In this document: piece by piece, positions 2,174-59,313 of the stretch
How positions within the stretch are numbered: the first letter of the stretch is position 1
How the letters are laid out: every line of letters begins with the position of its first letter
IMG/VR virus record: IMGVR_UViG_3300028840_001835
Length of the DNA stretch: 64,000 nucleotides
Origin: a virus
Taxonomy: Duplodnaviria > Caudoviricetes
Strand: one strand, 5' to 3'
Notes under the pieces: model-generated
The model's database searches: none
What the model was told of the DNA's origin: nothing
Seen by the model: the letters and a program-made list of their open reading frames with translations, nothing else
Translations under genes and position numbers: made by a program

Positions 2174-2201
2174 ACAATCCTCCTTTGATTGTATTTATAT
2201 T

Positions 2202-2276
2202 TGGTACCCAGTGAGGGACTCGAACCCCCGTCTGCTGGATGTAAGCCAGATATTCTAGCCGCTGAACTAACCGGGC
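2202..2276 (-). tRNA. tRNA-Val(UAC)
   Basis: Cloverleaf, loop CT-TAC-AT, CCA. Confidence 0.92.
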
Positions 2277-2284
2277 ACAATTAT

Positions 2285-2611
2285 TTATATTCCGTATACC
2301 TTATTTTTAATTTCCTGGATCACCTTTTCATCGACAGGCATGGTCTCGGGTCCAGGTCTCTCAATCTGTCTCCGGGTCCGTCCCTTCATCTCGCAGTAAG
2401 CAATATGATAATGACGGAAGTCCCTTCTCATGCCAAAGAGCTGTCCCTGCTCTCTCCAGACAGCTTCACCTTTTCTCTGCTTATCCCGAAGGTCTCTCTT
2501 AAATCTTCCAAGTCCCTTTGCCTTTAGTTTGATAACCTGCTTTAGTGCCCGAAATCTTTCTTTGGTGCCAATGATTGCGTCCAATCCTTTTTCGTCTATC
2601 ATAAGTTCCAT
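2285..2611 (-). CDS. conserved phage hypothetical protein (RHxHIAY...KGR...QIE)
   Basis: Motif RHYHIAYCEMKGRTRRQIE, which I recall from genes beside phage PTH2-like genes. Confidence 0.65.
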   Translation of the reverse strand: MELMIDEKGLDAIIGTKERFRALKQVIKLKAKGLGRFKRDLRDKQRKGEAVWREQGQLFGMRRDFRHYHIAYCEMKGRTRRQIERPGPETMPVDEKVIQEIKNKVYGI

Positions 2612-2693
2612 AATATATCTCCTTTTAAGTTAGTGTTTAATTGTATCCGTGTTCAATCAATATATTATGGTGGTTTGAATACATGGTTCTAAG

Positions 2694-3026
2694 TCATGCT
2701 CCCTCCCTCATTAGTTTAAGGTTTGAGAACACCTTCCTCTTATCACCCTTAATGGGTGTCGTGGAGAAGGCCGTGATTATGTTACCAATATCCGGTTCCC
2801 TAAATATGTATGTCTTTATCTCTTTCTGTTTCGCCTTATATAATAATTTTTCAATCGTTTGTTCATCGGTGTTACAGAGTACCAAATGTGGATGTGTCTC
2901 TGTACCATTCATATACATTCTTGCCATCTCTATCGCTGCATGACAAGACTGAACACATTGTTGAGGGATAGAAAGATCGTCCCTCACAACAACATAAACG
3001 TATTCGGTTTCCTAGGTATGATTCAT
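2694..3026 (-). CDS. peptidyl-tRNA hydrolase 2-like protein with in-frame TAG at codon 5
   Basis: ATG AAT CAT ACC TAG GAA ACC GAA TAC GTT TAT GTT GTT GTG AGG GAC; PTH2-like motifs YVVVRDDL..Q..Q.CHA, FREPDIGN.ITA. Confidence 0.75.
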
Positions 3027-3027
3027 T

Positions 3028-3285
3028 TTATTTCACCTTCTTTTTAATCAATCGTATACTTGCTTCAATTTGTTTTAACTGCTTTTTCATTACCTGTACA
3101 TTCTCTGTGCCAAGTGCCTGTTCAAAAACTTCAATATTTTGTTTTAAAACATTAACCCTATCTTTCACATAAGCCGCGTATTCTAATCCACCTTCTTTTC
3201 TAGGCTTATATACGCCTCTCTGTTTCATCACTTTCATTACGCCAGCAAAATCGTCACCATCTTTCAAATAGTTTTTATAGTCCAT
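3028..3285 (-). CDS. putative capsid-internal protein (CTS-like N-terminus)
   Basis: MDYKNYLKD start; TATAAATA at 3314-3321. Confidence 0.55.
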   Translation of the reverse strand: MDYKNYLKDGDDFAGVMKVMKQRGVYKPRKEGGLEYAAYVKDRVNVLKQNIEVFEQALGTENVQVMKKQLKQIEASIRLIKKKVK

Positions 3286-3323
3286 ATTGTCGCTCCTAAT
3301 GTTGATACATTAGTATTTATATT

Positions 3324-3399
3324 TGGTGCGTCCGGGTGGACTTGAACCACCAACCAGAGTGTTTAGAATACTCTGCTCTACGAGTTGAGCTACGGACGC
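3324..3399 (-). tRNA. amber suppressor tRNA (CUA)
   Basis: 76-nt cloverleaf GCGTCCG/CGGACGC-A-CCA; anticodon arm GAGTA-TT CTA AA-CACTC. Confidence 0.85.
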
Positions 3400-3400
3400 A

Positions 3401-3478
3401 TGGTGCCCAGAGTGGGATTCGAACCCACACATTAATTGGCTCTCGACCAACCTCCTCTACCAATTGGGATACCTGGAC
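3401..3478 (-). tRNA. tRNA-Leu(GAG), short variable arm, C33
   Basis: Leu-type D arm; loop TC-GAG-AG; CCA. Confidence 0.7.
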
Positions 3479-3492
3479 ATGATTAAAAGTTC

Positions 3493-3567
3493 TGGTGGAG
3501 TCGAGGGGAATCGAACCCCTATCTCCTGGGTGCAAGCCAAGCATGTTTCCGTTGTCACCACGACCCC
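3493..3567 (-). tRNA. tRNA-Ala(UGC)
   Basis: G3:U70, loop CT-TGC-AC, CCA. Confidence 0.92.
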
Positions 3568-3611
3568 TTTAATTTTATTTATATCTAACATGAATGGATT
3601 GGTTTACTGTT

Positions 3612-4028: not shown

Positions 4029-4146
4029 ACTTTCCTCCTTGTGCCCTTAGGTCACATTTCAATAATTGTTGAATGGTTATCCAATCCATCCATTCTCTTA
4101 ATGTAGAAATATTTATATCCTTTCGGTAGTATATTTTGGACTTAAT

Positions 4147-9129: not shown

Positions 9130-9206
9130 TGGTGACCAGGGTGGGGGTCGAACCCACACTGAACAGGGTTTAAGCCTGATCCCTCTTCCAGTTGGGGTAC
9201 CTGGCC
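9130..9206 (-). tRNA. tRNA-Leu(UAA), short variable arm
   Basis: Loop CT-TAA-AC; CCA. Confidence 0.88.
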
Positions 9207-10401: not shown

Positions 10402-10813
10402 TGGTGGAGATGGCGGGAGTCGAACCCGCGTCCAAGAATCCTTCCTTATACACTTCTCCATGCTGAGTCCCCAGAACTTAATCGGTCGGACACCCCTGTG
10501 GACACAAATGCCCTGACCTATTCCTTGATATCCTCTACCACCTGTGTCTAAGGAAACCCTTCAGATGGTGTATCCTCCTTTATAACACCACTCCCCGGGC
10601 GGAGATAACTCCGGGGTAGGCGCCTATGCCCTCAAGCGTAGGTAGGGACTTGTGCCAGCCCGGTGAGAGCAGCGAACTGCATCACGAACTGAAGTCCTGT
10701 ATGATCTACGGTGTTGCCGTCTATCGTGTCTCTGGTTTTTTAAGAGGCCACCAGCACCTCTGCATGCTATGTATAGTTCTGCACCCCTGTCGAAGCCAGT
10801 TGTAAGCATCCCC
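10402..10813 (-). ncRNA. ssrA: tmRNA; tag ORF 10718..10632 = GNTVDHTGLQFVMQFAALTGLAQVPTYA
   Basis: GGGGATG/CATCTCC-ACCA with G3:U70; 5' TTCGAC; 3' GGACGCGGGTTCGACTCCCGCC; ATAGAC-GGCAAC resume context. Confidence 0.92.
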
Positions 10814-10816
10814 ATA

Positions 10817-11929
10817 TTATTTATAAATCAAAGAAGGAGTTTCCTCAGACCTAAATCGTATCACCTTATATGCCCCCAATTTAGTCTGAATAGCCTCCAC
10901 AAACTCATCCTCACTTCCAAATTCCTTCAATTCACCATTCTCCGTGAATCTCCATTCTCCCTCGACATGATCCAGGCAGGTGATCACCAGCTTGGAGAAA
11001 ACATTCGTCCTTAGACAATCATCGGACTCGATTGCATATCTCAACAGATCAAGATCAAGAACTGTCTTACGAAACTCACCCTGATACTCATGCATCTGGT
11101 TGGTCTCGTTTGGGTTGTCCTTTATATCATGATCTATGTGCTCATTTGTCATCGGGCCATTTCCATGCCGTGTCTGATATGCCCGGGTCACCATGTATAT
11201 ATCACGGCCTTCAAGTATCCTATCTGCGTCCTCGATCATCTTTAGAATATTCTTTGTACCCGTGTTTGATCTCGTCACGTGCGGGAAGAACCCTATATCC
11301 TTGTCGAGCAGCAACCCCTGCGAACCCTCAAAGACCTTCTCTCCGTCTGGCATCTCTGCGTTCATCGTTATCCACATTGGCATTAAATCTTCCAATGTAT
11401 CGACCGCTTTATAAAACTCACCAAGGTCCAGATCCTCGAATCCATAATACTTCTGAATCAGGTTCATCTTAATCTTAAGGACCGATGTATTAAACAGGTC
11501 CTTGAACCGTAGAGAGTAAAAGTTCTCCTCCCTCTCTATAGTCGCACCAAACCCGACCCCACAGGTTCCATGTTCCTTAGTCAATGCGCTGTGTTGATTA
11601 AAATGCCTATCAAAAGGTGTCGTTATAGGGCAGTCGGGGTGTATGGTCATATATGGGTCAGCCCCTTTAGCCTTCAGCACATGAAACTCGGTTATTAATG
11701 CCTCGGGATCGACTGTGCAGAATCTCGACCAGTAAGTGGGAATCCCACTCAATGTACCAGAACCGAAATTCGAGAACACATGGCGAACACCATCACGCAC
11801 GACGGTATGCCCTGCCTGGCTCCCTCCCGAGAACCTTACAACAACTGGGCTCTGGGCCTCAGAGCAAAGGTAGTCCGTGAGGATACCCTTGCCCGAGTCA
11901 CCAAAACCTAAGTCTATGACAGCCTTCAT
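10817..11929 (-). CDS. divergent adenylosuccinate synthetase-like (PurA-fold) protein
   Basis: GDSGKG, GGSQAGHT, EGSQGLLLD, PHVTRSNT, RAYQTRHGNGP. Confidence 0.88.
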   Translation of the reverse strand: MKAVIDLGFGDSGKGILTDYLCSEAQSPVVVRFSGGSQAGHTVVRDGVRHVFSNFGSGTLSGIPTYWSRFCTVDPEALITEFHVLKAKGADPYMTIHPDCPITTPFDRHFNQHSALTKEHGTCGVGFGATIEREENFYSLRFKDLFNTSVLKIKMNLIQKYYGFEDLDLGEFYKAVDTLEDLMPMWITMNAEMPDGEKVFEGSQGLLLDKDIGFFPHVTRSNTGTKNILKMIEDADRILEGRDIYMVTRAYQTRHGNGPMTNEHIDHDIKDNPNETNQMHEYQGEFRKTVLDLDLLRYAIESDDCLRTNVFSKLVITCLDHVEGEWRFTENGELKEFGSEDEFVEAIQTKLGAYKVIRFRSEETPSLIYK

Positions 11930-14633: not shown

Positions 14634-14718
14634 TGGTGGAGGATGCGCGGACTTGGACCGCGGTCTTCTGCCTGCGATTACACCAGCAAGCAGACGTTCT
14701 CCATTGAACTACACCCCC
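14634..14718 (-). tRNA. tRNA-Ala-like gene with 11-nt anticodon-loop insertion
   Basis: Ala-type acceptor; stem TCTGC/GCAGA encloses 18 nt; T loop TCCAAGT; CCA. Confidence 0.6.
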
Positions 14719-15960: not shown

Positions 15961-16037
15961 TGGTGACCAGGGTGGGGGTCGAACCCACACTGAACAGGGT
16001 CTAAGCCTGCTCCCTCTTCCAGTTGGGGTACCTGGCC
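15961..16037 (-). tRNA. tRNA-Leu(UAG), short variable arm
   Basis: 75/77 identical to tRNA-Leu(UAA) at 9130. Confidence 0.88.
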
Positions 16038-36284: not shown

Positions 36285-36686
36285 ATGGTTACGAGGATTT
36301 ATGGGTTGCCCGATATGAAAGACGGAATGACTATAATAAATAGAGAGACTAAATATTTCATTGCGAGCGTAATGTTAAATTCGCCAACAGGTGGCTATCA
36401 TTCTATTGCATGGATTAGATATTGGAGAAAGAAGTTTATTGTTTGTGTCAACATTCGTTCTGAGAGAATTTCTAGATTATTATTTCTTAAAGGCATCAAG
36501 AAATGGTGTATTGATTATGATGGTGACTTTTGTTATCTTCTCGATTGGAATAAACTTAGGATGTTTCTTAAACTTATAAAATTGATGGATAAAAATATAG
36601 ACATTTATGAGTGTAAATATCAATGGTTTCTTAGAGAAATTAGAGCGTTAGGTTTTGAGACTAAATGGGATAGCCCTAAGCCATGA
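36285..36686 (+). CDS. FLxG-family paralog
   Basis: SRLLFLKGI. Confidence 0.8.
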   Translation: MVTRIYGLPDMKDGMTIINRETKYFIASVMLNSPTGGYHSIAWIRYWRKKFIVCVNIRSERISRLLFLKGIKKWCIDYDGDFCYLLDWNKLRMFLKLIKLMDKNIDIYECKYQWFLREIRALGFETKWDSPKP

Positions 36687-36934
36687 TACTTGATCTGATA
36701 CTGGCCCTATGTAGCCTAACGTTTGCTATGTCGATCCTTCCTCAGATAATAAGAGTGTATCGAATGAAGAAGGTTGATCAACTATCCTTCATGTTTCTAA
36801 TACCCACGACGGTGGCGTTATTTGTATCGGTGGTTGTGTTATTCATACTCGGTTTATACTTCACAATGGCCATGAACGCATTACAGTTTATTGAATATAT
36901 CATACTGGTTTCACTAAGGATGTATTATGGGTGA
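36683..36934 (+). CDS. SemiSWEET/PQ-loop family protein
   Basis: 3 TM, 83 aa, ILPQIIRVYRMKKVDQLS. Confidence 0.75.
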   Translation: MILDLILALCSLTFAMSILPQIIRVYRMKKVDQLSFMFLIPTTVALFVSVVVLFILGLYFTMAMNALQFIEYIILVSLRMYYG

Positions 36935-37289
36935 ATACGAATATTGGTCTGATCGTGATTGTACAGATATTCTATTTGGTATCTATTATGAAAGAAGGGA
37001 ACTCATAGAATATGATTACGGGCATGAAATACTTGTCAAGAAATGGAAAGAACAATGGCTAATGTGTATTAATAGGAATTGTGAATCAATGAATAAGATC
37101 ATGTTTCTAAAGGGGTTTAGGGTGTTTGATTATGATGAGGATCAGGATCCAAACTACATTGTCACATTTGAACAGATTTTCATGATTCTCAAAGAGTTAT
37201 TTAGAATAAATCATAATCGTGTACCTAATTTTCATGAGGAAGGCAAATGGTGGTTTTTAAAGATACTGGGGTCAATATATGAGTTTTAA
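36927..37289 (+). CDS. FLxG-family paralog
   Basis: NKIMFLKGF. Confidence 0.8.
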   Translation: MGEYEYWSDRDCTDILFGIYYERRELIEYDYGHEILVKKWKEQWLMCINRNCESMNKIMFLKGFRVFDYDEDQDPNYIVTFEQIFMILKELFRINHNRVPNFHEEGKWWFLKILGSIYEF

Positions 37290-37677: not shown

Positions 37678-38024
37678 AATTTAAACATTCATTACAATAC
37701 TATGATCAAACATTTGGTTCAAAACGAATCTGGGCTATACATTCTACAGAGTGTGGGGTCTACATTGTACGAATTGGATCTTACTATAATGTATGGCACG
37801 ATTCTGAGAAACTTCATAAACTACTATTTCTAAAGAGATTAGATGATAATTGGGCAAATTTAGAGGATAAGGAAAATGGTCATATTTACTGTCTTAGATA
37901 CATAACTAAGAAGGATCTTATTAATGTTCTCAAAATGTATAAGGCTTCTTATGATACGATGAATATGCATCCTTGTTCAGACACACCAAAATGGATATAC
38001 AAATTATTGGAGATTGAATATTGA
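37674..38024 (+). CDS. FLxG-family paralog
   Basis: HKLLFLKRL. Confidence 0.75.
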   Translation: MKFKHSLQYYDQTFGSKRIWAIHSTECGVYIVRIGSYYNVWHDSEKLHKLLFLKRLDDNWANLEDKENGHIYCLRYITKKDLINVLKMYKASYDTMNMHPCSDTPKWIYKLLEIEY

Positions 38025-38389
38025 GTGATTTTTTCAATGGAGATAAGTCTGTTAATGAGATTGGATTTATTCTCGGATTACATTCTAGAAAACACATGAA
38101 CTTGTTTCGTGACTTCTGTCTATTGGTTCGAAGATTTAGAAAGAAGTTTTTAATAAGTGTTCCTGAAGAACATGAGAGGGCGAACAGATTGATATTTCTA
38201 AAAGGATACAAGATATTTGGTAGGGGTTCCTATAATGACCCGCTTTACTATGTGGACTGGTGGATGGTGGAACTTCTAATCAAGGACATGATAATGATAG
38301 ATAAAGGTTTGGCTATGAACAATCACACTGCACAATGGATAAAGAGGGATCTACTTGCATTAAACCCACATCTCGTGGATAACATATAA
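38021..38389 (+). CDS. FLxG-family paralog
   Basis: NRLIFLKGY. Confidence 0.8.
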   Translation: MSDFFNGDKSVNEIGFILGLHSRKHMNLFRDFCLLVRRFRKKFLISVPEEHERANRLIFLKGYKIFGRGSYNDPLYYVDWWMVELLIKDMIMIDKGLAMNNHTAQWIKRDLLALNPHLVDNI

Positions 38390-52882: not shown

Positions 52883-52910
52883 AATGTAGTAAATATTTTT
52901 ACTTTGTCAA
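52883..52910 (-). promoter_or_regulatory. sigma70-type promoter for the ligase operon
   Basis: TTGACA-N16-TACATT. Confidence 0.7.
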
Positions 52911-53468
52911 GTTGTTTTTTTTGACGAATCGGTCCCTGGTCTTTTTATCCCAGGAATGAAAGTAGGTATAAAACCTCTTCTCTGAACATTGATTTGGAGA
53001 ATGGAATCTCTCCTTCACCCATTCAAACCTCTCATTATCAATTAGGCCTAAACAGTACGGGTTTATAATATAAATGCAAAGTATATCGGCCAGCTCCTCA
53101 TCATAGTTATCACTGGACTGTGGTGTTAGGTAACAATGTTGATTAGAAAATCCTGCCTTCCTGTATTGTTTTATTAGGTCTGTCTTATGATTTATTAGGT
53201 GGGCGTACTCATGTATAAGAACAGAGAAAAGACTATAATCCTCAGGATGCCCAATTCTAACAGGATCGTTCTCATCGAAGTTAAGTGGATTGATGTATAT
53301 GTTGGTATCTTCTGGATGTTTATCGACACGGACGAATCCGAGAAACTTTGAATTAAAGTTGAATTTAATTTCAACCTTAAATGAAAGAAGGTTCCTCTTC
53401 TGGAACCTTTCTATCAGTCTGTAAGCTCTCTTATAGACCCCTGGTGTATTAACGAGTTCAATCCTCAT
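52899..53468 (-). CDS. HEXXH zinc metallopeptidase-like protein
   Basis: LIHEYAH...EELAD. Confidence 0.75.
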   Translation of the reverse strand: MRIELVNTPGVYKRAYRLIERFQKRNLLSFKVEIKFNFNSKFLGFVRVDKHPEDTNIYINPLNFDENDPVRIGHPEDYSLFSVLIHEYAHLINHKTDLIKQYRKAGFSNQHCYLTPQSSDNYDEELADILCIYIINPYCLGLIDNERFEWVKERFHSPNQCSEKRFYTYFHSWDKKTRDRFVKKNNLTK

Positions 53469-53480
53469 GTAACTCCCGGT

Positions 53481-54017
53481 CTATTTGGTCAGCTTCTGTA
53501 TCTCCTTCCCAATGTCGATCAAGGACTTCTTATCGAATTCCTTTTTTAGTTTCTTTTCATCAAATTTCTTCTTGGCCTTCTTTAACGCCTCTATGTATTT
53601 CTTCCAGAGCTTGTCTTTCTGCTTCGGATTTAGTTTACCAACTGTAGTTGACTCCTCAAGGGGTTCCATGTCCATAGTCATTTCCCCTTCATCTCCACCA
53701 AATACATCGGTCGTGAATATACGGAAACTCTGAGCCTCATGTCCAAACATCTGTCCTGCAGGATCGGGTCCTAAATCAAGATACTCGTCCTGATTGCCAG
53801 AGAAGGAAATGGTAATGTGGTCGACATTCCATCTATGGTTTGTGATAAACTCAGCAAGTGTTCCCTTGGTGATACCAAGTATTTGAACAAACTCGTCAGT
53901 GGTGTATTGAACGCCCCAATCAAGGAGCTCTGCTTCCACGTTGTTATGTATCGCATCGACTATCTGTTGATGTGTAGGAGTGTTCATCTCCTCATTAAGT
54001 AGGTGCTTAAACTTCAT
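53481..54017 (-). CDS. putative capsid-internal protein (CTS-like)
   Basis: MKFKHLLNE. Confidence 0.65.
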   Translation of the reverse strand: MKFKHLLNEEMNTPTHQQIVDAIHNNVEAELLDWGVQYTTDEFVQILGITKGTLAEFITNHRWNVDHITISFSGNQDEYLDLGPDPAGQMFGHEAQSFRIFTTDVFGGDEGEMTMDMEPLEESTTVGKLNPKQKDKLWKKYIEALKKAKKKFDEKKLKKEFDKKSLIDIGKEIQKLTK

Positions 54018-54030
54018 GTATCTACTCCTT

Positions 54031-54258
54031 TTAGTATTTCAGTAGTGCCTTTTTGAAATTGATAATTCCTTTTTGAATATCATCATAAGCCTTACTAGCT
54101 GCTTTAAAATGGCGTACCATTTTTGAATCTTCCTCTGACGCCATTTCGAATCCTGGAAGTATGTCCTCCATAAAATCAATTAGAGGATCTGCTTTCTTTT
54201 GAAAATCCTGAGCCTCTTGTTTGTTCTCACCTAAAAACTCTTTAAATGTATCTGCCAT
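54031..54258 (-). CDS. putative capsid-internal protein (CTS-like)
   Basis: MADTFKEFLGE. Confidence 0.7.
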   Translation of the reverse strand: MADTFKEFLGENKQEAQDFQKKADPLIDFMEDILPGFEMASEEDSKMVRHFKAASKAYDDIQKGIINFKKALLKY

Positions 54259-54264
54259 GATATT

Positions 54265-54501
54265 CTACTCCCATTTTATTCTACCAACAACCTTCTTGAA
54301 TTGAGCAAATTGTTTTTGAAGTTTCTCCCAGCTATTGTCAACTATTTTATAAATTGATCTTAGATTAGGATCCTCATCCTTATCCAGTTCAAGTTCGCCA
54401 ACTATTGTATCAGCTTGCTCTGCAAAAGCAGTCCATGCCTTATCGAGTTTCTTAATATCCTCTTTGTCCTCTTTGACGAAATCTTTAAATGTGTCTGCCA
54501 T
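54265..54501 (-). CDS. putative capsid-internal protein (CTS-like)
   Basis: MADTFKDFVKE; TATAAATA at 54528-54535. Confidence 0.7.
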   Translation of the reverse strand: MADTFKDFVKEDKEDIKKLDKAWTAFAEQADTIVGELELDKDEDPNLRSIYKIVDNSWEKLQKQFAQFKKVVGRIKWE

Positions 54502-58752: not shown

Positions 58753-58902
58753 TTATAAAAAGAACTCTGGATGTGTAAAGTCTAATTCTCTGGGCTCATC
58801 GTCATCAGTCTCATCTCCAATCACCTGATACTCATCCTCCATAGTCTCAAACTCGCCATCATCCGGAAAGTCCAGAAGTTCTCTATCGTGATAACCTCCC
58901 AT
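58753..58902 (-). CDS. small acidic protein (49 aa)
   Basis: MGGYHDRELLDFPDDGEFETMEDEY...; AGGAGG SD. Confidence 0.7.
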   Translation of the reverse strand: MGGYHDRELLDFPDDGEFETMEDEYQVIGDETDDDEPRELDFTHPEFFL

Positions 58903-58911
58903 ACATTCCTC

Positions 58912-59313
58912 CTAATCTACGACCTCAACATCATTTACATTGAATTTATGGGAGATCACCCATTTATACTTCTCCTTAAAGGGAAGAACATACACAAACT
59001 TGTCGTGCTTCTCAATGTCATCCTCATTAACCACGTCAATTAGACCCCAGTTTTTCAAACAAAAAATAATCGAGTTCTTGCGCTCGATATCTTCATCACT
59101 TATGTTATTGTAACCATTATCTCGGGTCAGTATAAACATCTCTTTAAAATGGACAATGTAATACTCCTCAAAATTCTGATAGAGGTAACATGATGGATAA
59201 AGTATCTTCTGCCGTTTGTTGGCGATACCTATTCGTGTGAGGGTTTCTTTGATGATCTTAATGTCGGTCTTTGGTACAACCTGTACCATATGCTTAATCT
59301 CTTTCATAATCAC
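58912..59313 (-). CDS. regA: RegA translational repressor
   Basis: KETLTRIGIA...LYPSC...YIVHFKEMF...R.N.I...L.NWGLI. Confidence 0.92.
   Translation of the reverse strand: MIMKEIKHMVQVVPKTDIKIIKETLTRIGIANKRQKILYPSCYLYQNFEEYYIVHFKEMFILTRDNGYNNISDEDIERKNSIIFCLKNWGLIDVVNEDDIEKHDKFVYVLPFKEKYKWVISHKFNVNDVEVVD

Follow-up and report, generated by a model that had tools for sequence, protein, structure and literature searches.

The DNA stretch analyzed here (the window) comprises 64,000 nucleotides of the IMG/VR virus record IMGVR_UViG_3300028840_001835 (Duplodnaviria; Caudoviricetes). Its G+C content is 40.7%, and it encodes 33 tRNAs, a transfer-messenger RNA (tmRNA), an RNA ligase, a RegA-like repressor, a tail tube protein and an Hsp20 protein. 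It appears to be a portion of a large T4-like phage from a sediment or seawater metagenome. The gene studied in this work encodes a PTH2-fold hydrolase-like protein and is interrupted by an amber codon (TAG) shortly after its start. A tRNA gene with the anticodon CUA, the last of an Ala-Leu-CUA cluster, precedes it by 297 nt on the same strand, and the gene and the tRNA are together referred to as the cassette. When the 4 kb surrounding the hydrolase-like gene were compared by megablast with 50,697 phage records, no match was obtained and, hence, no close cultured relative is represented there. Likewise, the stretch was found in no RNA sequencing run. An initial annotation, made from the sequence alone, had proposed that the full product is only made if this tRNA reads the TAG. 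This core idea was supported by the relatives described below, which keep the stop, carry a linked CUA tRNA and, where the leader stop is TGA, a UCA tRNA.

The features of the locus are collected in Table 1. An 85-aa open reading frame (ORF) without Pfam or PHROG matches stands between the tRNA cluster and the hydrolase-like gene, and the single base separating its stop from the next ATG suggests that both genes are translationally coupled. From this ATG, which is preceded by a Shine-Dalgarno (SD) sequence, the leader runs up to the TAG, and 105 open codons separate the latter from the TGA that ends the gene. The SD sequence with its spacing, the coupling to the upstream stop, the leader codons and the TAG at codon 5 had all been described in the initial annotation and were confirmed to the base. 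The same was true for GTG 2987, the sole canonical in-frame start past the TAG (codon 14; nine codons on), which lacks an SD sequence and falls within strand beta-1 of the AlphaFold2 model (residues 9-15), the strand that it had been said to cut.

Table 1. Coordinates of the cassette, of other features of the window and of partner genes in other loci (given as locus:position)
Feature	Position	Strand	Source
Putative PTH2-fold hydrolase-like gene, 110 codons with TAG read through, TGA stop at 2696-2694	2694..3026	-	Pfam, AlphaFold2, Foldseek
Leader ATG AAT CAT ACC TAG; ATG 3026-3024, amber codon 5 at 3014-3012, next base G	3012..3026	-	sequence
Shine-Dalgarno GAAGGTG, 7-nt spacer to ATG	3034..3040	-	read from sequence
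85-aa ORF, TAA stop at 3030-3028, one base ahead of the hydrolase ATG	3028..3285	-	ORF reading
TATAAATA motif, T4-late-promoter-like, between the tRNA and the 85-aa ORF/hydrolase operon	3314..3321	-	pattern search
Suppressor tRNA, anticodon CUA, 76 nt, CCA encoded	3324..3399	-	ARAGORN
tRNA-Leu(GAG) and tRNA-Ala(UGC), immediately upstream of the CUA tRNA, same cluster	3401..3567	-	ARAGORN
TATAAATA motif ahead of the three-tRNA cluster (the "late promoter" of the initial annotation)	3576..3583	-	pattern search
Further example sites of TATAAATA	2192-2199, 2282-2289, 4110-4117	-	
tmRNA	10402-10953	-	Rfam, ARAGORN
Three tRNAs with Leu anticodons	3401-3478, 9130-9206, 15961-16037	-	
Additional tRNA	14638-14718	-	Rfam
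Block of mostly short ORFs	~27000-47500	+	
Examples of small paralogue families in this block	36285-36686, 36927-37289, 38021-38389	+	
HD-type partner gene	L095:10336-10899 (CBB), L004:20336-20899 (Kaldavass), L091:10336-10899 (Yen9-04), L111:11054-11608, L086:10320-10871, L198:2716-3282		
'WGFHPC'-motif partner gene	L151:5368-5811, L147:5334-5753, L005:21498-21929, L073:9992-10795 (fusion)		

The suppressor tRNA and the use of TAG in the window

The initial assignment of a 76-nt CUA tRNA was borne out by ARAGORN and by a score of 59.3 bits on the Rfam model RF00005, which is mid-range among the tRNAs of the window. It has a 7-bp acceptor stem, A73, an anticodon loop UU-CUA-AA and a 5-nt variable loop, and no close paralogue was found among the other 32 tRNAs of the window (identity of at most 72%). 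Its acceptor stem and T-loop are identical to those of the cassette tRNA of locus L217, and the stem of L061 is near-identical. Across the family, the cassette suppressor tRNAs vary in the acceptor stem and in the discriminator base and do not point to any one charged amino acid. A D-loop without GG, as well as A and C at positions 31 and 39, were also read in the sequence as previously described. Nevertheless, the leaky suppression deduced from these features is speculative, and the tRNAs of the relatives do not share them.

True tRNA-Pyl has an atypical architecture. ARAGORN labels any CUA tRNA as tRNA-Pyl, and this identity was rejected for the window tRNA on account of its ordinary cloverleaf, its score on the general tRNA model and the length of its variable loop, with no search being made for Pyl synthesis genes. 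Selenocysteine and pyrrolysine readings were dropped for the whole family, given that its suppressor tRNAs fold as ordinary cloverleaves with 68-81 nt. An initiator-like role of the CUA tRNA, with initiation at UAG, was also discarded, given the G1-C72 pair, the anticodon stem without the three-G-C run, and leaders that always open with an SD-spaced ATG.

As had been claimed, TAG is still an ordinary stop elsewhere in the window, where it terminates 22-24 of approximately 123 ORFs. Among these are the Hsp20 gene, which directly precedes the tRNA cluster, and the RegA-like gene, both with full-length family matches. A genome-wide sense reading of TAG (code 15), with this gene merely one recoded among many, would be in line with the presence of a CUA tRNA and with the second in-frame TAG of some family members (e.g., LR756501 and L067). 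However, reading TAG as Gln did not merge any fragments of the window into recognizable longer genes, and no family match crossed the TAG in the joined ORFs (52899-54017, 54031-54501, 58753-59313, and others). Together with the TAG-ended ORFs and with the annotation of the cultured carriers under the standard code, this makes such a reading very improbable and, judged by its sequence, the phage is not a code-15 phage. Within the 64-kb window, no second convincing gene with an in-frame TAG and no other conserved client of the suppressor was seen.

The bare pattern of an ATG, one to five codons, a stop and a long open frame was not rare in the window, with six cases for TAG, five for TGA and six for TAA. 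Among the six TAG cases, the PTH2-like gene, which is the sole member of its family in the window, was the only one having an SD sequence and no canonical start among the seven codons that follow the TAG; the other leaders had a canonical start one to seven codons past the TAG and no clear SD sequence. Hence, the significance of the leader rests on its conservation across relatives.

Conservation of the leader stop and covariation with the anticodon

A tblastn search against the phage records yielded 40 homologues with 30-46% identity, nearly all of them from jumbo phages. Each of the homologues examined showed an SD-led ATG, one to three codons and then a TAG. The leader peptide ahead of this stop was MAH in Kaldavass and XbC2, MAQ in CBB, MTH in LR756511, MT in Acinetobacter phage ME3, MK in Tenacibaculum phage pT24 and in LR756500, ML in Ralstonia phage RsoM2USA and MS in LR756501, and is MNHT in the window. 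In Xanthomonas phage Xoo-sp13, the PTH2-like domain makes up the C-terminal half of a larger product, the frame of which opens ATG AAG AAG TAG (MKK), eight codons ahead of the annotated start. The early stop persists at approximately 30-50% protein identity, and its carriers comprise cultured jumbo phages (CBB, Kaldavass, ME3, RsoM2USA, pT24 and Xoo-sp13) and huge uncultured ones, contigs from IMG/VR and from metagenomes, and metagenome-assembled genomes (MAGs) of Planctomycetota and Nitrospiraceae. In several phages the start had been annotated too late, as in CBB_406 (35 codons short) and Kaldavass CDS0237, or the gene had not been annotated, as in Serratia phage BF, with no coding sequence at this place, and in the pEa_SNUABM phages.

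Every reference phage tested encoded a tRNA(CUA). Its distance to the gene was 0.4 kb in ME3 (upstream, one of four tRNAs), 0.8 kb in LR756500, 2.1 kb in LR756501 (two copies), 2.5 kb in pT24 (upstream, one of three or four tRNAs), 3-4 kb in Kaldavass and CBB, 8 kb in LR756511 and 13 kb in RsoM2USA. When IMG/VR was scanned for the pattern independently of gene calls, 80 loci were obtained (63 distinct). The leader consisted of Met, one to four codons and TAG in 49 loci, 41 of which had a CUA tRNA within 10 kb. CUA was the commonest anticodon in the 63 distinct loci (46 loci), followed by CAU (25); it belonged to the nearest tRNA in 36/59 loci and, among the 15 loci that had just one tRNA, to that tRNA in 11. 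The CUA tRNA was on the same strand as the gene in 45/47 loci and within 1 kb in 29/47, often 110-330 nt directly upstream.

Furthermore, the type of leader stop and the anticodon of the neighboring tRNA changed together. The loci L062, L139 and L073, which lack the TAG, open with ATG-x-TGA, and their nearest tRNA has the anticodon UCA. A metagenome scan added more loci with a TGA leader and a UCA tRNA (L166, L176, L185 and L187), as well as one TAA leader, the contig of which was too short to include a tRNA. The pooled family, dereplicated at 90% identity, contained 121 distinct members, with TAG as the leader stop in 83, TGA in 7 and TAA in 1; there was no leader stop in 23, and 7 were ambiguous. 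Where a suppressor tRNA was present in the locus, it matched the stop in all cases (59 TAG/CUA, 6 TGA/UCA and no mismatches, i.e., 65/65; Fisher p=1.2e-8). The TGA forms were scattered over the maximum-likelihood tree, with four independent contrasts when only supported branches were considered and six with all branches, and the anticodon followed the stop in every one of them. The UCA tRNAs were no more alike mutually than to the CUA tRNAs, which fits repeated anticodon switches. The view that the neighboring tRNA decodes the leader stop rests mainly on this covariation, which is not predicted by a restart of translation, a pseudogene or a sequencing error.

A single in-frame stop in one metagenomic assembly could by itself be due to a pseudogene, a recent nonsense mutation or a sequencing error. 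Two Logan assemblies with a word depth of about 23 matched a 1-kb stretch of the locus with zero differences; they may be the source data or one data set filed twice, and are thus possibly not independent, so that their agreement does no more than exclude a one-off assembly slip as the source of the TAG. The stop, however, was located 2-7 codons past the ATG (Met, one to six codons, and the stop) in 91/121 distinct relatives, with varying codons around it, and the remaining frame of the window gene is intact and keeps the invariant residues of the family. These explanations can therefore be practically discounted.

A mini-ORF acting independently of the tRNA was also considered, with termination at the TAG and a restart at GTG 2987 or at a non-canonical codon, or with the tuning of translation as its only role. 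ORFs of two to seven codons are known regulators, and the codon after the TAG was ATT, a weak start, in 16/49 of the IMG/VR TAG leaders. Nevertheless, the residues right after the stop were conserved at the protein level and no restart codon was common to the relatives, this codon being GAA in the window and AAT, GTT, GTA, AAC or ACT in other loci. A start at GTG 2987 would remove strand beta-1, and the RNA structure predicted around the leader TAG was not unusual (z = -0.41). Since the joint change of stop type and neighboring anticodon would also be left unexplained, this alternative appears quite improbable.

Several observations weigh against decoding of the leader stop by the neighboring tRNA. 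The sign test on independent contrasts was underpowered (p=0.125 for 4/4); in 24/83 loci with a TAG leader, many of them on short contigs, the fetched flank was devoid of a CUA tRNA; and 7 of the 23 members without a leader stop were still close to a CUA tRNA. Moreover, an efficient suppressor would extend the 22 ordinary TAG-ended ORFs of the window by 1-193 residues, and hence suppression must be weak, context-dependent or tolerated. A purine follows the leader stop in 90/91 family cases (TAG-G in the window), but it also follows ordinary TAG stops in 18/22 window cases, so that the purine alone does not distinguish the leader. Taking all of this together, we estimate a probability of about 80% that the neighboring tRNA decodes the leader stop and in this way gates the synthesis of the hydrolase.

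Some additional traits of the leaders were observed in the relatives. A second in-frame TAG lies approximately 40 codons into the PTH2-like gene in L014 (LR756501), L067, L069, L074, L077, L081, L084 and L120. In a soil and sediment subgroup (L146-L161, L174, L183-L185 and L195) the leader peptide is conserved and ends in (G/P)-F-(T/A/G/Q) before the stop, which suggests that the last leader residues are also constrained there. The MAG loci (L220-L225) were found by a profile search of genome contigs with a narrow soil-clade alignment. Among them, those from Gemmataceae and other Planctomycetota showed the leader M-x-x-P-F-A-TAG, one of them on a 1.64-Mb contig, and a CUA tRNA was located about 0.85-0.95 kb downstream in 3/5 of the Planctomycetota loci. 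A Nitrospiraceae MAG carries the cassette too.

The PTH2-fold protein, its partner genes and other window features

The readthrough product matched the Pfam family PTH2 (PF01981) with E=1.2e-7 and 32.4 bits (cut-off 23). Its AlphaFold2 model, obtained with a 42-sequence alignment, had a pLDDT of 91.7. The top Foldseek matches were all Pth2 structures (3erj, 2zv3, 1wn2, 1q7s and 1xty; E 1e-6 to 1e-4, TM 0.62-0.77), and a PDB sequence profile search agreed with this fold. The residues D17, V25, Q26, H29, A30, E77 and T85 are invariant in the family, for which 2,828 cluster representatives were counted at E <=1e-10, many of the predicted proteins beginning just past the leader. The scores on the two NCBIfam Pth2 equivalogs (19.8 bits vs. 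126 and 18.1 vs. 82) were both below the cut-off.

In the Pth2 of S. solfataricus, the Lys of the Gly-Lys loop and the Asp of the D-A-G motif are reported as needed for activity. In the profile alignments of the window protein to 2zv3, 3erj and 24bt, the two-residue Gly-Lys insertion was absent and the invariant Glu77 aligned with the Asp of Pth2. The family thus shares with Pth2 (PF01981; human Bit1 1q7s) the fold, with a TM of about 0.7, and the motifs V-R-x-D-L, Q-x-x-H-A and T-A after an acidic residue. In contrast, at approximately 20% identity, it has lost the Gly-Lys loop after D-L, has a second loop four residues shorter and carries Glu in place of Asp. On these comparisons, the protein is probably a PTH2-fold, hydrolase-like member of the PTH2 superfamily and not a Pth2 equivalog. 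As for the release of dropped-off peptidyl-tRNA, the activity initially assigned to it, the fold was recovered, but the loop with the Lys is missing and the equivalog cut-offs are clearly not reached, so that peptidyl-tRNA is no more than a candidate substrate.

No third protein was universal across the loci, although two partners recurred on the same strand. The first one, of HD type, recurred in at least 18 loci; in Xanthomonas and Stenotrophomonas phages, it forms a fusion with the PTH2-like domain. It contains invariant H, HD, H, D and H residues, and it most resembles part of the class-II tRNA nucleotidyltransferase of PDB 3wfo-3wfs (profile E=1e-4; fold TM 0.6), which tentatively points to chemistry at tRNA 3' ends. 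In CBB, Kaldavass and Yen9-04, an amber codon interrupts this gene at the same place, and the gene has been annotated there as two ORFs (CBB_407 and CBB_408 in CBB, with the TAG at locus position 10474 in the context ELDTG-TAG-GDS). It is also interrupted in L111 and L086, and in L198 it has its own leader, ATG ACG TAG. Given this conserved in-frame TAG, the HD-type gene is a probable second client of the suppressor tRNA in other phages.

The second partner has the motif 'WGFHPC' and 125-165 aa. It occurred in at least 20 loci on the strand of the PTH2-like gene, gave no Pfam or other family match and, in L073 and L183, is found fused C-terminally to the PTH2-like domain. An hmmsearch of all of the window ORFs retrieved neither the HD-type nor the 'WGFHPC' partner at E <=10, and the window holds a minimal two-part cassette.

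Regarding the rest of the window, the tmRNA scored 139.6 bits in Rfam over 10402-10813, and ARAGORN predicted the tag peptide GNTVDHTGLQFVMQFAALTGLAQVPTYA. The three tRNAs with Leu anticodons have 77-78 nt and are devoid of the long variable arm of bacterial tRNA-Leu, and the additional tRNA, absent from the ARAGORN list, scored 51.1 bits. The block of short ORFs contains about 48 of at least 80 aa, with stop and start codons often overlapping, and includes a few small paralogue families.

Proposed mechanism and its meaning

According to the proposed mechanism, ribosomes would start at the SD-led ATG (3026) and meet the UAG at codon 5. If the release factor RF1 wins at this codon, a tetrapeptide would be released and no enzyme made, whereas if the charged phage tRNA(CUA) wins, an amino acid would be inserted and the 110-residue enzyme synthesized. 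The insertion site is predicted to lie in an unstructured N-terminal tail, so the identity of the residue should not matter, a view in line with the variable acceptor stems and discriminator bases seen among the family tRNAs. Enzyme output would then report the charged suppressor tRNA relative to the release factor.

Regarding the purpose of such a gate, the enzyme may govern its own synthesis. Acting on the ester at tRNA 3' ends, an excess of it would strip acyl-tRNA, that of the suppressor included, and the resulting drop in readthrough would stop its production. This reading is favored tentatively, as a possible one, with the two alternatives that follow being about as defensible. A point against it is that Pth2 enzymes normally act on N-blocked and not on free aminoacyl-tRNA.

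One of these alternatives is a timer, with the gate delaying the hydrolase until the suppressor accumulates late in infection and the enzyme being an ordinary peptidyl-tRNA recycling factor. The motif TATAAATA, the T4 late-promoter consensus, occurs 14 times in the window vs. 4.9 expected, with 13 copies on the minus strand, and the copies checked near 2190-3590 fall between genes. The copy ahead of the tRNA cluster is the putative late promoter from which late timing had initially been deduced; it does exist, and the motif is enriched, while a sigma-70 promoter scan gave no site at 3576. However, the copy at 3314-3321, a putative promoter, precedes the hydrolase operon itself, so that no delay is implied. 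Moreover, the tRNA of many loci is placed 110-330 nt ahead of the gene on its strand, and the two are probably transcribed together. For the copies assigned to MAGs (one on the 1.64-Mb contig), an infection clock would hardly be meaningful, and the enzyme is not a canonical Pth2. Thus, although stop-codon recoding has been proposed as a timer of late genes (Borges et al., 10.1101/2021.08.26.457843), this explanation seems unlikely here.

The other one is damage control in a feed-forward manner. Suppression would yield read-through products, stalled ribosomes or dropped peptidyl-tRNA, and a hydrolase made in proportion would clear them. The PTH2 fold, the tmRNA encoded by the phage and the 22 TAG-ended ORFs that would be read through are in its favor. 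On the other hand, no other conserved client of the suppressor was found in the window, the authors of the XacN1 study found no client behind the amber stops of their phage (PMC5852040), and a tRNA that is seen to serve mainly its own clean-up enzyme would need a further reason to exist. We consider this alternative improbable to the same degree as the timer.

On a more general level, the cassette could conceivably be a mobile and self-contained "stop-codon sensor," in which a private suppressor tRNA licenses a PTH2-like esterase, together with an HD phosphohydrolase in many loci, and these enzymes feed back on the tRNA, although this broader view is rather doubtful. If true, it would represent a natural orthogonal tRNA-codon circuit gauging charged tRNA against the release factor, which may serve phages and some bacteria to repair tRNA ends in tRNA-targeting conflicts or to keep them in check.

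The cassette can be compared with several known systems. The prfB gene, encoding RF2, is autoregulated through an early in-frame UGA and a +1 frameshift and senses its own product. Both systems would use an early in-frame stop as a sensor in a translation-factor gene, with the output set by competition at that codon. In the cassette, by contrast, the frame is unchanged past the stop, a dedicated tRNA would decode it, and the feedback of the product is only hypothesized. A prfB-type +1 frameshift was rejected, as the conserved protein continues in the same frame right after the stop. The bar minigenes of phage lambda are free-standing, very short ORFs that are toxic when Pth is limiting and are linked to peptidyl-tRNA drop-off. 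The cassette would likewise tie a very short ORF to drop-off and hydrolase activity, but its mini-ORF is in frame with the hydrolase gene and paired with a suppressor tRNA.

Full-text searches of the literature turned up no description of the cassette. Code-15 phages (Lak, crAss-like, and other gut phages), which read TAG as Gln, have been described without discussing it (Borges et al., 10.1101/2021.08.26.457843). In those phages, a phage-encoded suppressor tRNA permits the translation of genes with in-frame stops in a standard-code host, as it would here, and a regulatory use was proposed by the authors. They recode many genes, mostly structural or lysis ones, and have largely abandoned the stop as a terminator. 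In the cassette, in contrast, TAG remains a normal stop, a single small gene (elsewhere, one operon) is involved, the stop is 2-7 codons in and the tRNA is physically linked. The jumbo phage XacN1 was found to encode CUA suppressor tRNAs, and its authors extended the genes past the 18 amber stops at their ends without identifying a target gene (Sci Rep 2018, PMC5852040). Such orphan suppressors are CUA tRNAs in otherwise standard-code jumbo phages, as in the present case, and XacN1 has a homologue of the PTH2-like gene. That study examined gene ends, whereas the client proposed here is at the gene start, where gene callers truncate or skip it.

The cassette would give the apparently purposeless suppressor tRNAs of standard-code jumbo phages a first conserved and physically linked client, on the basis of a stop/anticodon covariation that is the type of evidence normally establishing RNA-RNA pairing. 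It also reveals that annotation pipelines shorten or overlook these genes. The question is testable in cultured phages of Pectobacterium, Cronobacter, Serratia, Acinetobacter, Ralstonia and Xanthomonas and, if the feedback were true, a natural orthogonal suppressor tRNA would function as a regulatory wire, hitherto an engineered device.

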